The notes beneath the pieces were generated by a model, which was not told the DNA's origin, did no database searches, and saw only the letters and a program-made list of their open reading frames with translations. Shown here one piece after another: positions 204 to 5,230 of a stretch of DNA of 5,230 bases. The DNA lies in IMG/VR virus record IMGVR_UViG_3300014691_000037; one strand, written 5' to 3'. Numbering within the stretch: position 1 is the first letter of the stretch; each line of letters starts with the position of its first letter. This DNA is from a virus (taxonomy: Duplodnaviria; Heunggongvirae; Uroviricota; Caudoviricetes). The translations under genes and the position numbers were made by a program.

Positions 204-611
204 TTATTTTATTGATTTATTTTTACGCGCTTTAAGCATTTCTTCGAAGAGTTTGTTGAAGTTTTCTACTCTTGCGCGCATTTCAGACAGCAAGGCTTCC
301 TGCTCGGAAGATGGAAGAGCATCGAATAATTCGATCAATTCTTTGTGGTTGGGAGTTAGCTCTGTTTCCACATGAAGTTCTTGTGCAGGCACTGGTGCCT
401 TGTCTTCGTCACCAAACATTAGCCATGTAGGTGAGCACTTCAGAGCATCCGCTAAAGCAAACAATCGTTTTCCGACTGGCTGGGTTTCGTCTCTTTCCCA
501 TTGTGAAATTGTGACGTGAGCAACTCCAGCGAGGCGCGCAGCTTCTCGTTGTGTTAAGCGTAATTCTTTTCGTCGCGCCAGAACTCGCTGGCCTAGGGTT
601 CTTGTATCCAT
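204..611 (-). CDS. dicA: Prophage immunity repressor, XRE-family helix-turn-helix, DicA-like (135 aa)
   Basis: Complete minus-strand ORF (ATG 611..609, TAA 206..204). N-terminal HTH with the XRE/Cro-C1 signature (...QREAARLAGVAHVTISQWERDETQP...). Length and C-terminal segments (...CSPTWLMFGDEDK..., ...MRARVENFNKLFEEMLKAR...) match my recollection of E. coli Qin-prophage DicA. Divergent from a small Cro-like gene. No strong Shine-Dalgarno upstream. Confidence 0.85.
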   Translation of the reverse strand: MDTRTLGQRVLARRKELRLTQREAARLAGVAHVTISQWERDETQPVGKRLFALADALKCSPTWLMFGDEDKAPVPAQELHVETELTPNHKELIELFDALPSSEQEALLSEMRARVENFNKLFEEMLKARKNKSIK

Positions 612-919: not shown

Positions 920-1376
920 ACAGGCTCGTGAGGCTCTGGATGCCTGGATATGTCGACCAGGAATGACACAGGAGCAGGCGACGATATTAATCACTGAAGC
1001 ATTCTGGGCTTTGAAAGAGCGCCCGAACATCGATGTTCAGCGTGTCACAGATGAAGGTGGCGCGGTTGATCAGCGAGCGCTTGGCGTTAATCGAGTGAAG
1101 ATATTCGAACGCTGGAAGGCTATCGACACCAGGGATAAGCGTGAAAAGTTCACGGCGCTAGTGCCTGCAATTATGGAGGCTATCCGGATTAATGATTTCA
1201 GGTTGTATCGTGAAATTAGTGACGGAAAAAGCATCACGTACATGATCGCCGGGTTAAACAAAGAATATGGCGATGTGGTGGAGTCCGGACTGCTTTTTGC
1301 TGATCCTGCCGTAGTGGATCGTGAAACTGACGAACTTATAGAAAAAGCAANNNNNNNNNNNNNNNNNTGGTTATAA
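903..1376 (+). CDS. Prophage early-region protein of unknown function (position of YdaT/cII-type genes); C-terminus interrupted by an assembly gap
   Basis: ATG 903 overlaps the upstream stop by 17 nt. Backbone-like G+C. The 17-N run (1351..1367) falls 7 codons before the apparent TAA (1374..1376), so the true frame, length and end are uncertain. Confidence 0.6.
   Translation: MKITPEQAREALDAWICRPGMTQEQATILITEAFWALKERPNIDVQRVTDEGGAVDQRALGVNRVKIFERWKAIDTRDKREKFTALVPAIMEAIRINDFRLYREISDGKSITYMIAGLNKEYGDVVESGLLFADPAVVDRETDELIEKAXXXXXXWL
1351..1367. other. Assembly gap / masked bases (17 N)
   Basis: Literal run of n characters in the sequence. Confidence 0.95.
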
Positions 1377-1390
1377 ACACACAGCTTGCG

Positions 1391-2305
1391 ATGAAGATTG
1401 GCTTAAATGAAGCCATTGTGTTGCAGCAGTTGCATTACTGGTTGAGAGATACCAATTCCGGCATGGAATGTGATGGTGTTCGCTGGATTTACAACACAAC
1501 GGAACAATGGCTGGAACAGTTCCCATTCTGGTCAGAGTCAACGTTAAAGCGCGCGTTTGCAAGTCTGAAAACGCTGGGGCTTTTGCGTTGTGAAAAGCTC
1601 AATAAATCAAAGCGCGATATGACCAATTTCTACACGATTAACTATGGGAGCGAGCTTTTAGATGATGGCAAATTGAGCGAATCCATCGGTTCAAAATGCG
1701 CCGCTCCATCAGGTCAAAATGACACGATGGAAGAGGTCAAAATGAAACGCTCCATTGATTCAAAACGACCCAATGTCATCGGGTCAAAATGGCCCGATGA
1801 TCCTACAGAGAATACAACAGAGATTACTACAGAGAATAAAAACACTTTTCGTCCGGAAGCTTCGCAACCGGACCCGCAGACGGCTGAACAGGATTTTTTA
1901 ATCCGGCACCCTGGCGCAGTTGTGTTTAGTGCGAAAAAACGCCAGTGGGGTAGCCAGGAGGATCTGGCGTGTGCGCAGTGGATATGGGGGCGGATCGTGG
2001 GTCTCTACGAACAGGCCGCCAGTGATGATGGCGAGATCATGCGACCAAAAGAGCCTAACTGGACTGTCTGGGCCAATGATGTGCGCACAATGCGGATGCT
2101 GGATGGCAGAAGCCACAGACAAATTTGCGAAATGTTTGGTCGGGTACAGCGGGATCCATTCTGGGTAAAAAACATCATGAGCCCGTCAAAACTCCGCGAA
2201 AAATGGGACGAACTGGTCATCCGCCTGGGACGTTCACCTGTACAGCGTTGTGTGAATCATATTTCTGAACCGGATACAGAAATTCCGCCTGGTTTCAGAG
2301 GATAA
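1391..2305 (+). CDS. Phage replication initiator (lambda O-like organisation: N-terminal winged-helix DNA-binding region, origin inside the gene, distinct C-terminal domain)
   Basis: 304-codon ORF. N-terminus (NEAIVLQQLHYWL...WIYNTTEQWLEQFPFWSESTLKRAFASLKTLGLL) resembles winged-helix domains of phage replication initiators. The middle of the gene carries five iterons and an AT-rich repeat block, exactly as lambda ori sits inside O. No Shine-Dalgarno precedes ATG 1391 and the gap lies 24 nt upstream, so the start is uncertain. Confidence 0.8.
   Translation: MKIGLNEAIVLQQLHYWLRDTNSGMECDGVRWIYNTTEQWLEQFPFWSESTLKRAFASLKTLGLLRCEKLNKSKRDMTNFYTINYGSELLDDGKLSESIGSKCAAPSGQNDTMEEVKMKRSIDSKRPNVIGSKWPDDPTENTTEITTENKNTFRPEASQPDPQTAEQDFLIRHPGAVVFSAKKRQWGSQEDLACAQWIWGRIVGLYEQAASDDGEIMRPKEPNWTVWANDVRTMRMLDGRSHRQICEMFGRVQRDPFWVKNIMSPSKLREKWDELVIRLGRSPVQRCVNHISEPDTEIPPGFRG
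1684..1791. repeat. Iteron array: five direct repeats with core (G)GTCAAAATG at ~23-bp periodicity (putative ori iterons)
   Basis: Read directly: TCAAAATG at 1691, 1714, 1737 and 1784, and TCAAAACG at 1760; spacings 23, 23, 23 and 24 bp. Flanking consensus is roughly CATCnGG-TCAAAATG-nnnCG. The repeats encode a repetitive linker (…SIGSKCAAPSGQNDTMEEVKMKRSIDSKRPNVIGSKWPDD…). Confidence 0.75.
1804..1850. repeat. Three 12-bp periodic ACAGAGA(A/T)TA repeats plus an A-rich tract (putative DNA-unwinding element of the origin)
   Basis: Read directly: ACAGAGA begins at 1805, 1817 and 1829, followed by AATAAAAACAC. Located immediately after the iterons; encodes low-complexity TENTTEITTENKNT. Confidence 0.55.
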
Positions 2306-2345
2306 GTTTTGATTTCAGGTCATGAGGTAATTTTAAGGGGGACTT

Positions 2346-2768
2346 GTGGCAAAAGTTTTTACACAAGAAGAGCGGGAAAAAATTAAAGGGCAGGTGGTGG
2401 AACTCGTGCGCCAGAGCGGTCGTGAGACGTTACGGCAACTGGAAGCTAAAACAGGTGCGACTAGATATCTGATGAGCGTTCTTGCCAGAGAGCTGGTAGC
2501 CAGTGGCGATGTATACAACTCCGGCTACGGGTTATTCCCGTCTGAACAGGCGCGTAAGGACTGGCAAAACGCCCGCAAAAAACTCTCGAGGGCAAAGGTG
2601 AAGAAACCTGCTGTGGTTGATCCGGACCTTATCTGGTCGTTACCAGACGGAGAAATACGTCGTTATGACAGGCACCAAAATATAATTTGCTGTGAGTGCC
2701 GTAATAGCGAAGTTATGCAGCGCATCTTGGCATTTTATCAGGGAAATGTTTGGTATTTATTAAAGTAA
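2346..2768 (+). CDS. Hypothetical 140-aa protein (GTG start), basic with a C-terminal Cys cluster
   Basis: GTG 2346 lies 5 nt after AGGGGG (2335..2340); stop TAA 2766..2768. Backbone-like G+C (34/60 at 2401..2460). I do not recognise the family. Confidence 0.6.
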   Translation: MAKVFTQEEREKIKGQVVELVRQSGRETLRQLEAKTGATRYLMSVLARELVASGDVYNSGYGLFPSEQARKDWQNARKKLSRAKVKKPAVVDPDLIWSLPDGEIRRYDRHQNIICCECRNSEVMQRILAFYQGNVWYLLK

Positions 2769-2799
2769 CGAGATTAAAGAGCATTAGTTCAGATATTAA

Positions 2800-2828
2800 T
2801 TGACACTTCGGTGGCACAGGGCTAGAAC
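2800..2828 (+). promoter_or_regulatory. Candidate sigma70 promoter for the cargo gene: TTGACA, 17-bp spacer, TAGAAC
   Basis: Read directly: perfect -35 hexamer at 2800..2805 and a 4/6 -10 match at 2823..2828, in the AT-rich region upstream of the 583-aa ORF. Would give a ~200-nt leader. Confidence 0.3.
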
Positions 2829-3035
2829 TACTATGGTTTGCAGCCTTGTGCCAAGAGCGGACAGTTTGAAAAATAACGGTATTATCCAGCGACAGGTACA
2901 TAGTAGTATCTGTCTTTATAAAATTTTCAGCCTTGCAATGATTTTATGGACAAAAGAAGGTTAGACATAAACCATCCCAAATGGATATGATTACTGTGTT
3001 AGTAAACACTCATGATTATTACGGAGGGCTATTAA

Positions 3036-4787
3036 GTGCTTGATTATTTATCAAAGCTTCCTTTACCGGCTGAGCAAATACCACAGGGTTTAAAGGACCT
3101 ATTATTTGTTGAAGACAATTCTAACCCCCAGCGAGAAGTTACTGTAACCCATCATTACGAAAGAAATAAGTATCAAGATGACTATGATTACACTCATATG
3201 ATCATGGCCGTAGTTCCTGAGAATGATGTTGCAAATCTAAGTGTGTTACGTGAATCCCGTGACGGTGTCGTCACATTTTCCACTCAGGACTGTACAGAGA
3301 AAGGTGGAGCTTGGGGTACAGATATATCTATCTCCGGTTATGGGTATATTGTAGCTTCTTGGGGTTCAAGTCTTCACTACTCCTTTTTGTTGGCCGAAGA
3401 TGTCTGGATGAAACTGGGATTAAAACCAAGGCTCATAGGGGATGATGAACAAAAAGTAATTTTTGATGAGGTTTCTTCGCCATCATATGGAGTCGTGCAA
3501 GGCGATGTCTCAAGAGAATATCATTTCAAAAGCAACAAAGATATTAAATGGACAATGAGGAATGATTACCTCAGAAAATATTTATGGATGAAAGGTTGTG
3601 TTGGAGTAAAAGTTTTTTTCTTCGAAGCCTATATCGAACGAACTAAAGAGGTACTCGGACTCTTATCAGGTTCTAATCACTTTAGAATCGAACTTCCTTG
3701 GATTGAATTTGAAATAGTTGACCATACAGATAGGATATTGCTGCAAGCATGGGGAACTGTTCAATCTGTTCAGCCAGAGCTTTGCTCTGAATTAGATGTC
3801 AACACATTAGTATGGCCCGGTCACAAGTCACCGATAACAATGTCGGGAGCTACCGATTATCGTAGTGGCGAATACGTATATGTTGATGATGCTTTTCTTA
3901 CTAAATATGAAAAAGATAAGACATACGAAGCCATTCCATTTTTTTATGGCAATCACTATCATGCAGATCCTAGCTATGGCGGGCAATGGGCATTTAGAGG
4001 CTGTACTAGAGTCGGTAGGAACTTAGTGAAAATATATTTTTATGATCTTTACCAAGGAGTTCCAGAAAAGGAAATATATCATGTGTTTGATTATGCGAAA
4101 GACCAAAGCCTTATTGATACTAATTCATTAGATAATGAGCATATTGTTTCTAAGACTTTTAGATTTGCTAGAGAACTAACTGAGCTTAATGGAAATCTAG
4201 TGTCTCTAGGTAGAGTTTTAGATGTTCCCCTATCGAGTTCTGATATTTTTGAATACAACAGAGACGAACTAGATGAAGAAGGCATTAGAAATTATCCTGT
4301 ACTGCAAAAGCTTGCTCATGTAGCCTCAATCGATATGCAAGAGCAAGATTTCCTAGCTAGATGCAAGACTATAAACGAGATCATTACTAAAATTAAAACT
4401 GGTTCATTGAAGAAATTAAGTATTGCTATGGGGGTGAAGGCTGAGGATATTGAAAGATTGCAAACGCTAAAATTATTGCAAGGAATATTAAACCTTACAA
4501 GTGTTATTAATGAGCAAAATGAAGAGCAATCCGCGCTAAAACATGCCAATGAACTTGCAAAGTATAATTCACCCAATCATACATTAGCAGCTCTATTTAT
4601 AAATAATGACTTGAGGAACGCTGAAGCTCATGAAGCAGTCAATAAATCCATTGAACATCTAGCTAGTCTTGGTTTTGATAGCGCAACTTTGGCATCCGGT
4701 TATAGCCATGCTTTAGATTTTATATTTGATCAAATTATTGAGAGCTTGAGGAGTTTTAATTCGACTTTAAATGAAGTCCTGCACTAA
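3036..4787 (+). CDS. Large hypothetical protein (583 aa) on an AT-rich foreign insert; candidate single-gene phage-defence/abortive-infection protein with a C-terminal HEPN-like R-N-x-x-x-H motif
   Basis: GTG 3036 lies 6 nt after GGAGGG (3024..3029); stop TAA 4785..4787. G+C about one third by hand count (19/60 at 4081..4140) against ~60% in the phage backbone (36/60 at 1021..1080). Aromatic-rich N-terminal ~400 aa not recognised; helical C-terminal ~160 aa contains LRNAEAHE (residues 526-533). Confidence 0.85.
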   Translation: MLDYLSKLPLPAEQIPQGLKDLLFVEDNSNPQREVTVTHHYERNKYQDDYDYTHMIMAVVPENDVANLSVLRESRDGVVTFSTQDCTEKGGAWGTDISISGYGYIVASWGSSLHYSFLLAEDVWMKLGLKPRLIGDDEQKVIFDEVSSPSYGVVQGDVSREYHFKSNKDIKWTMRNDYLRKYLWMKGCVGVKVFFFEAYIERTKEVLGLLSGSNHFRIELPWIEFEIVDHTDRILLQAWGTVQSVQPELCSELDVNTLVWPGHKSPITMSGATDYRSGEYVYVDDAFLTKYEKDKTYEAIPFFYGNHYHADPSYGGQWAFRGCTRVGRNLVKIYFYDLYQGVPEKEIYHVFDYAKDQSLIDTNSLDNEHIVSKTFRFARELTELNGNLVSLGRVLDVPLSSSDIFEYNRDELDEEGIRNYPVLQKLAHVASIDMQEQDFLARCKTINEIITKIKTGSLKKLSIAMGVKAEDIERLQTLKLLQGILNLTSVINEQNEEQSALKHANELAKYNSPNHTLAALFINNDLRNAEAHEAVNKSIEHLASLGFDSATLASGYSHALDFIFDQIIESLRSFNSTLNEVLH

Positions 4788-4818
4788 TGTTAAAGTGCAA
4801 TATAAGATTTAGATGATG

Positions 4819-4873
4819 CCTTAAGGTTTTTTATTCAGTTAATACTTATTGGTTCTATTAATAAGTAATTTTT
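4819..4873 (+). terminator. Weak terminator-like elements after the cargo gene: CCTTAAGG followed by TTTTTT, then an AT-rich 8-bp stem followed by ATTTTTAT
   Basis: Read directly: palindrome 4819..4826 followed by T6 (4827..4832); TACTTATT (4843..4850) pairs with AATAAGTA (4860..4867), followed by a T-run at 4869..4873. The stems are short and AT-rich, so termination efficiency is doubtful. Confidence 0.2.
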
Positions 4874-5150
4874 ATGTCTTCTGAAATATTTGTGCCGATA
4901 ACAGGGTCATTAGTAATATATTCAATAGTTACGGGCTAATTGCCAGTGTTCGCCTTTCGCTCAAAGCGGACTAGAAGGTTAGCTTACGTCGGACTTGGCG
5001 TATTTAAAGAAGAGTTGGTGGTGACTGGTTGTTGTGTTCCATTTCTACAGAACAAAATCACAGAAACTATACCCAATAGTTGTATTGAAGCACTGACGAG
5101 ACAGCCTCATATTTATCAGGGCAGGTGTATATCCAATACAGGAGGTTGTC

Positions 5151-5230
5151 GTGCTGGTCCTCAAATGTGCGCTAGCTATTGCGGCTGTAATGGCAATTTA
5201 TTGTCTTGCTGTTGTTCTTACGGATCGCCT
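5151..5230 (+). CDS. 5'-truncated-by-window small hydrophobic protein, possible Hok/Gef-type type I toxin (N-terminal 26 codons visible)
   Basis: GTG 5151 lies 5 nt after AGGAGG (5140..5145). The visible peptide VLVLKCALAIAAVMAIYCLAVVLTDR is one transmembrane-like helix ending in charged residues, as in Hok-family toxins. The ORF runs off the window edge, so it is absent from the ORF track. Confidence 0.35.
   Translation, partial: MLVLKCALAIAAVMAIYCLAVVLTDR

Follow-up and report, generated by a model that had tools for sequence, protein, structure and literature searches.

Hok/Gef toxins (PF01848) are about 50 amino acids (aa) long and have an N-terminal transmembrane helix and a conserved C-terminal domain that contains an R-x-x-L-C-E motif. 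Shorter type I toxins include TisB (29 aa), ShoB (26 aa), ZorO (29 aa), DinQ (27 aa), Ldr (35 aa), and Ibs (19 aa). Small membrane peptides of prophages can be toxins, exclusion factors, or regulators of membrane proteins. Phage genes that have their own promoter and are inserted between phage modules are termed morons. In the Sakai prophage Sp5, hokW-sokW is a toxin/antisense pair that aids phage release, and the HokW protein is toxic (PMC8621323). An ORF upstream of this pair is not mentioned in the hokW-sokW paper (PMC8621323), and a 14-kb stretch of Sakai Sp5 contains neither hok nor the small ORF that is the subject of this study.

Here, we analyze a stretch of 5,230 nt (hereafter, the window), which is the early region of a lambdoid prophage. 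Its right edge cuts through a small ORF that starts at position 5151. From comparison of sequences, we conclude that this ORF is probably a conserved, unannotated gene for a 29-aa inner-membrane peptide, with a weak promoter of its own, and that it is an optional upstream companion of hokD/sok. The features of the window are as follows.

204–611, minus strand: HTH repressor gene
689–919: Cro-like gene
from 903: YdaT-family gene
1391–2768: 304-aa ORF without a family match, and a DUF977 gene
3036–4787, plus strand: 583-aa ORF of low GC content, without a family match
4940–5230, plus strand: 97-codon "mok-like" frame, open here; not a gene
4941–5084, no strand: left part of a conserved module; homology to other prophages starts at 4941
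5085–5090, plus strand: −35-like hexamer TTGAAG, inferred from comparison
5108–5113, plus strand: −10-like hexamer CATATT, inferred; predicted transcription start at ~5118–5121
5140–5145, plus strand: Shine-Dalgarno (SD) sequence AGGAGG, read directly, then TTGTC (5 nt) and the start codon GTG (5151–5153)
5151–5230, plus strand: first 26 of the 29 codons of the small ORF, which encodes a single-helix membrane peptide; the stop (5238–5240) lies outside the window

We take 1391–2768 to be the replication region of the prophage. Positions 1351–1367, inside the YdaT-family gene, are a run of 17 N. The flanks of this run are 65 bases further apart in near-identical contigs, and the 17 N thus stand for ~82 bases.

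The visible part of the small ORF (5151–5230) translates to VLVLKCALAIAAVMAIYCLAVVLTDR, a hydrophobic run followed by charged residues. Exact-match scans of IMG/VR and of GTDB genomes for the point at which cargo and module meet in the window gave no hit. The ORF was extended with six contigs (L131–L136), which were retrieved by the exact sequence of the 583-aa neighbor. These contigs are identical to the window from 1368 to 5230 except at base 5159 and, in L136, at 2428. With them, the complete product reads MLVLKCALAIAAVMAIYCLAVVLTDRLSD; it has 29 aa, and the stop codon TGA is at window-equivalent 5238–5240, three codons past the edge. This peptide has a GRAVY of 1.72, and its 19-residue core (residues 6–24) has a mean Kyte-Doolittle hydropathy of 2.56. 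In matching Escherichia coli genomes, the ORF ends after 29 to 30 codons, and hokD lies ~220 bases further right. The peptide has no match in Pfam, NCBIfam, PHROGs, or PADLOC at E values up to 1, and a homologue search with a 40-aa read-through variant returned one near-identical protein only. We describe the product of the ORF, with reasonable but not strong confidence, as a 29-residue single-helix peptide of the inner membrane, into which it is predicted to insert.

We collected 137 copies of the small ORF: 120 from IMG/VR by a 20-nt pattern, and the rest from phage, genome, and plasmid records. Exactly 29 codons are present in 134 of the 137 copies (of the other three, two have 31 and 37 codons and the third is truncated where its contig ends), in a sample of which most loci were gathered by an exact pattern that lies inside the ORF, so that this part of the sample is biased toward conservation.

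The original prediction was that a Hok-family toxin of ~50 aa starts at 5151 and that the overlapping 97-codon frame is its mok. We regard this as extremely improbable. Much of the underlying description is accurate: AGGAGG, the 5-nt spacing, and GTG at 5151 are there on direct reading, as is the hydrophobic helix with a charged end. A hydrophobic N-terminal helix behind a strong SD is compatible with a Hok protein, and prophages of this type do carry hok homologues, which are annotated as hokD in E. coli genomes. However, the constant length of 29 codons argues against a Hok protein. The Hok C-terminal residues that were expected beyond the window edge are absent, and the extension instead reaches a stop after 29 aa, without a Hok C-terminal domain. 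A lack of Hok-family residues downstream had been set beforehand as a test of refutation; since the ORF has none, it is not hok. Furthermore, at E values up to 1 the peptide matches neither HOK_GEF nor the NCBIfam Hok models; the score of the downstream hokD on HOK_GEF is 82.9 bits. An hhalign comparison of 11 peptide variants with eight Hok-family sequences, six of which were entered by hand, gave a probability of 0.9%. A tandem duplication of hok or a truncated Hok was also considered, and was ruled out by profile comparison and by the lack of a second sok match.

The 97-codon frame is indeed free of stops from 4940 to the window end, as originally described, but its role as mok does not hold up. 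Only 18 of 72 unique relatives have it open throughout, it is interrupted in the other 54, and it has no coding signature: there are 5 synonymous to 21 non-synonymous changes in this frame, which is about what is seen in unconstrained DNA. Compared with the copy on the Shigella virulence plasmid (pINV), in which stops interrupt the frame, its dN/dS amounts to 4.6. The left limit originally given for the frame, 4940, coincides with the start of homology at 4941. An antisense sok-like promoter and the fold-back elements of hok mRNAs had been suggested as checks. Inside the window there is no match to RF01794, which is found downstream instead (5283–5457), and the minimum free energy of the predicted small-ORF mRNA is like that of shuffled sequences (z from −0.43 to +0.64 across six types).

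The expectation of a hok/mok-type locus at the right edge is partly right. A real hok, with its leader and Sok region, is located 220 nt further right; in L131–L136, hokD/sok begins ~50 bases beyond the window end, with the start of hok mRNA at ~5283. The first reading is corrected accordingly: hok is real but not in the window, and the small ORF at 5151 is another gene. The features downstream of the window, in window-equivalent coordinates, are as follows.

5240–5269 (L132 6205–6234), minus strand: promoter-like site that overlaps the hok promoter in back-to-back orientation
5248–5276: hok promoter, TTGGCG-17-TAGAAT
5283–5457 (L132 6248–6422; L001 3343–3517): hok mRNA leader, matched by Rfam sok (RF01794) with 114 bits
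5452–5607: hok, matched by Pfam HOK_GEF
5676–5693: terminator after hok

This hokD/hokW-type locus has an upstream "mok" ATG that is in frame with hok, giving a 70-aa ORF (window-equivalent 5395–5607; L001 3455–3667; L132 6360–6572), which several callers annotate as MokW or HOK_GEF. In R1, mok is out of frame with hok. Over the hok 3′ region and terminator (5616–5697; L132 6581–6662), isrK is matched at 25.7 bits, below the Rfam gathering threshold of 50; this match is probably due to chance or a shared terminator shape. Besides the downstream sok, a permissive Rfam scan gave only sub-threshold matches, of which the one to isrK is the best. We attribute these to chance, and none of them is plausible for the segment that carries the small ORF.

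The small ORF and hokD/hokW-sokW (PF01848, RF01794) have several characteristics in common. The small-ORF segment is part of the same conserved module. Each gene specifies a small hydrophobic peptide, and each is located in the interval that separates the replication genes from the gene for the Q antiterminator. However, the small ORF encodes 29 aa rather than the ~51 aa of Hok, without the C-terminal domain of Hok. It precedes the hok promoter and is not included in the hok mRNA, and it has no mok-type overlapping frame. No fold-back structure was detected in its RNA, and most hokD loci do not have it.

The extent of the module can be seen from its distribution. Window positions 4941–5230 are matched in 1676 of 5426 complete E. 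coli genomes at ~93% identity, and the match starts exactly at 4941; there are no annotated features under it in the matching genomes. Directly to the left of 4941 are variable cargo genes. Majority-base conservation is 0.74 to 0.90 across 4941–5084, which also has indels, compared with 0.94 to 0.99 across the small ORF. In other recombinant types, 4941–5084 is swapped for unrelated sequence, while the promoter-like motif and the ORF are kept. There is no Rfam match in 4941–5084. In our view, 4941–5230 is likely to form the upstream portion of a ~760-bp conserved module that occurs in lambdoid prophages of both Escherichia and Shigella. With similar likelihood, two elements make up this module: a small gene without annotation and, after it, a type I toxin-antitoxin locus (hokD/hokW-sok).

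The small ORF might alternatively not be a functional protein gene at all. Its DNA could owe its conservation solely to recent origin and tight linkage to hok, or to a role as an upstream transcribed or promoter region of hok, with the reading frame surviving by chance. We find this unlikely, in part because of how the two loci are distributed. The hok leader or locus comes next in 108 of the 118 copies that have enough flank (~92%). In the other 10, which include the pINV copy, hok is absent yet the ORF is intact; in one hok-less prophage variant, other DNA begins 12 nt after the ORF stop. Persistence of the ORF where hok has been deleted speaks against the non-coding alternative. Conversely, hokD-type loci occur at 10862 places in 4722 E. 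coli genomes, and the core of promoter and ORF at 2192, in 1928 of the 5426 complete genomes; the small ORF is present at ~20% of hokD-type loci in E. coli. As 80% of hokD loci work without the segment, it is not a required hok element, and the ORF is better seen as an optional companion that is not part of the hok/sok mechanism. The sequence of the ORF region is also not significantly complementary to that of the Sok region, of the hok mRNA, or of the hok 3′ end, which is further evidence against a non-coding role.

The pattern of substitutions also argues for a protein. Among 25 haplotypes, variable sites are distributed 6/5/14 over the three codon positions of the ORF frame. There are 14 synonymous to 13 non-synonymous distinct changes in this frame, against an expectation of 26% synonymous. 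Both other frames have 5 synonymous to 21 non-synonymous changes each, and the third-position bias is confined to the ORF frame, which argues against the non-coding alternative. Amino acid changes among the copies are conservative (A/T/V, V/I, D/E, and R/H). The SD is AGGAGG, GGGAGG, or AGGAGA in all copies. Recombination breakpoints lie just outside the promoter-ORF unit on both sides, and the unit moves between contexts; the position of the breakpoints again argues against the non-coding alternative.

Other observations favor the non-coding alternative. Most prophage copies are 90 to 95% identical, and many are thus of recent common ancestry. Among close prophage haplotypes, dN/dS is ~1 or above on very few changes (1.76 for type B versus the consensus, from six changes), which indicates a modest constraint on exact residues. 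In addition, PGAP calls the small gene in none of the RefSeq genomes examined. Nevertheless, frame and length are kept even in a copy whose DNA is ~20% diverged, and in which GTG has been replaced by ATG in place.

This diverged copy was found by tblastn, which is unbiased by the DNA pattern used above. It has ~76% protein identity and is present on 136 virulence plasmids of Shigella and enteroinvasive E. coli (EIEC). The pWR100 copy, MLVLKGTLAIAAVMTIYCLIVVLMERFSD, is of the same length and has ATG instead of GTG at the same codon. Nine of the 16 differences are synonymous, and against the prophage consensus dS is 0.62, dN 0.12, and dN/dS 0.20. Thus, the small ORF looks like a real gene that is kept under purifying selection. 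Its location on pWR100 is as follows.

L138 2436–2690 (NZ_CP037924.1 ~90808–91062), minus strand of the record: promoter-ORF unit, diverged but intact

On pINV, the unit occupies the intergenic region of ospZ and icsP, where it shares the strand of icsP and precedes the icsP coding sequence by ~290 bp. There is no hok in this copy; ~90 nt of hok promoter and leader are left before the icsP upstream region. We compared the locus with published dRNA-seq data from S. flexneri M90T, the one experimental data set that was found. In that part of pWR100, the dRNA-seq table has icsP starts at 90709 and 90726 only, and none at the predicted site near 91027, a finding that speaks against the promoter proposed below and favors the non-coding alternative. 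The table also has no start site for the adjacent remnant of the hok promoter, and weak promoters may thus be missed.

Upstream of the ORF, the comparison points to a promoter. CATATT is invariant in 136 of the 137 copies, in five or more upstream contexts that are unrelated to one another and on Shigella pINV, and it is 36 to 37 nt from the start codon. TTGnnn is present in 125 of the 136 copies with CATATT. The spacer is always 17 nt long and has 16 different sequences. Such a pattern, with hexamers that are conserved and a spacer that varies freely, is what one would expect of a sigma-70 promoter, and we therefore read one here. The window version matches the consensus at 8 of 12 positions, below the promoter-scan threshold of 9 of 12. 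The inferred promoter, TTGAAG-17-CATATT, would accordingly be a weak one of the sigma-70 type. It would give a transcript with a leader of ~32 nt, a strong SD, and a GTG start that drives the small ORF. During lytic growth, the small gene would also be read from the early rightward transcript of the phage. There is no terminator between the small ORF and the hok promoter, so that transcription starting at the upstream promoter probably extends into the hok mRNA region. The same arrangement could allow the upstream promoter to serve hok, which is a further point in favor of the non-coding alternative.

In 11 copies (L105, L100, L035, L052, L069, and relatives), a three-base substitution (equivalent to 5086–5088) turns the −35-like TTGAAT into TCTCAT, and the ORF is intact. 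These copies are possible natural promoter-down variants.

We next consider what the peptide might do if the ORF is a gene. It resembles the short enterobacterial type I toxins in its size, in its single hydrophobic helix, and in not being called by annotation pipelines. This raises the question of whether it is a second type I toxin that is held down by an antisense RNA from the opposite strand and forms a two-toxin module with hok. A hydrophobic 29-aa peptide with a charged C terminus, encoded in a prophage beside a proven type I toxin family, is consistent with this proposal. So is, in the lineage of the window, the promoter-like site on the minus strand, TTAACT-18-TAAAAT (9/12), which lies just 3′ of the stop and would direct antisense transcription through the whole ORF. 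We nonetheless judge the proposal to be quite improbable. The minus-strand site passes the promoter scan in only 49 of 133 copies, and its −35 hexamer is missing on pINV and in hok-less variants. Where the site is conserved, its overlap with the hok promoter could provide the explanation.

The RNA of the small ORF also departs from that of known type I toxins. The mRNAs of hok, tisB, and ldr are stable and keep their SD sequestered. By contrast, the small-ORF mRNA is not unusually stable in any of the six types (z values above) and has neither a consistent structure across the types nor consistent SD sequestration; its leader is short and unstructured, and its strong SD is exposed. Divergent antitoxin RNAs of the tisB/istR or zor/orz type would be encoded in the upstream DNA, which is replaced in several types. 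Our comparison revealed no small-RNA gene, antisense or divergent, that is conserved. Variation at synonymous sites extends over the entire ORF, and therefore no constraint from an overlapping RNA is visible. Finally, there is no match to a toxin family in NCBIfam or Pfam. We give similarly little credence to the idea that the 29-aa peptide is a functional partner of Hok, either as a second membrane toxin or as a helix that modulates Hok or lysis timing, in a two-peptide module of which a stand-alone copy would have been kept on pINV.

A C/T polymorphism is present in the −10 hexamer of the minus-strand site; 49 copies pass the scan and 84 fail.

The reading to which we commit is that the small ORF encodes a small, membrane-acting accessory protein of prophages, which would make it a moron-type gene. 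Its action would be independent of Sok control, and we do not regard it as a classical, tightly silenced type I toxin. Like morons, it has the signature of its own sigma-70-type promoter, and it is located in a cargo hotspot of the early right operon. It encodes a helix of transmembrane length and moves between contexts as a promoter-ORF unit. It differs from morons in having no terminator of its own in the common arrangement.

This small gene is present in about one third of complete E. coli genomes, in several temperate phages, and on the Shigella and EIEC virulence plasmids. It falls outside all families in Pfam, NCBIfam, PHROGs, and PADLOC, and the standard annotation pipeline does not call it. 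A peptide that travels with hokD/sok could bear on the effect of that system on phage release, or on cell survival. Among species-representative genomes, a scan with a degenerate DNA pattern detected the gene in E. ruysiae, S. flexneri, and three MAG contigs only. As far as we have searched, the family is thus confined to Escherichia and Shigella.

The ORF has been labeled sporadically. Some GenBank submitters call it a "membrane protein" or "hypothetical protein" (REL606 and BL21), its pINV form is uncharacterized in UniRef, and a Prokka annotation of pWR100 lists it as hypothetical. The peptide string was not found in the searchable literature, and it is absent from the Sakai small-gene supplements. 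The sORF table of Shigella "overlooked genes" has no matchable entry, with BIO00620 (31 codons) being a possible lead. Two other candidates were rejected: a preprint on the Pas sRNA concerns the late region and has Sok only within its 10-kb flanks, and SMP3 of CFT073 is a DUF6404 protein that is unrelated to the small-ORF peptide.

Two further observations concern the neighborhood of the small gene. In E. coli B, a deletion (L140 1480–1605; BL21(DE3), NC_012971.2 ~1591432–1591560) fuses the middle of the DUF977 gene to the small-ORF leader. It removes the inferred promoter and leaves the small ORF intact, and the shortened DUF977 frame ends inside the small ORF, in another frame.

The second concerns the 583-aa ORF (3036–4787), which has a GC content of 34 to 41%. 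It has no match in Pfam, PHROGs, PADLOC, or PDB sequences, and no DNA-level match in complete E. coli genomes. It could be a defense or accessory gene. With the DUF977 gene on one side and the small-ORF/hok module on the other, it occupies a cargo hotspot. In other phages, the same hotspot holds a gene for a 713-aa hypothetical protein, a NUDIX and HAD hydrolase pair, or a hypothetical gene on the minus strand.
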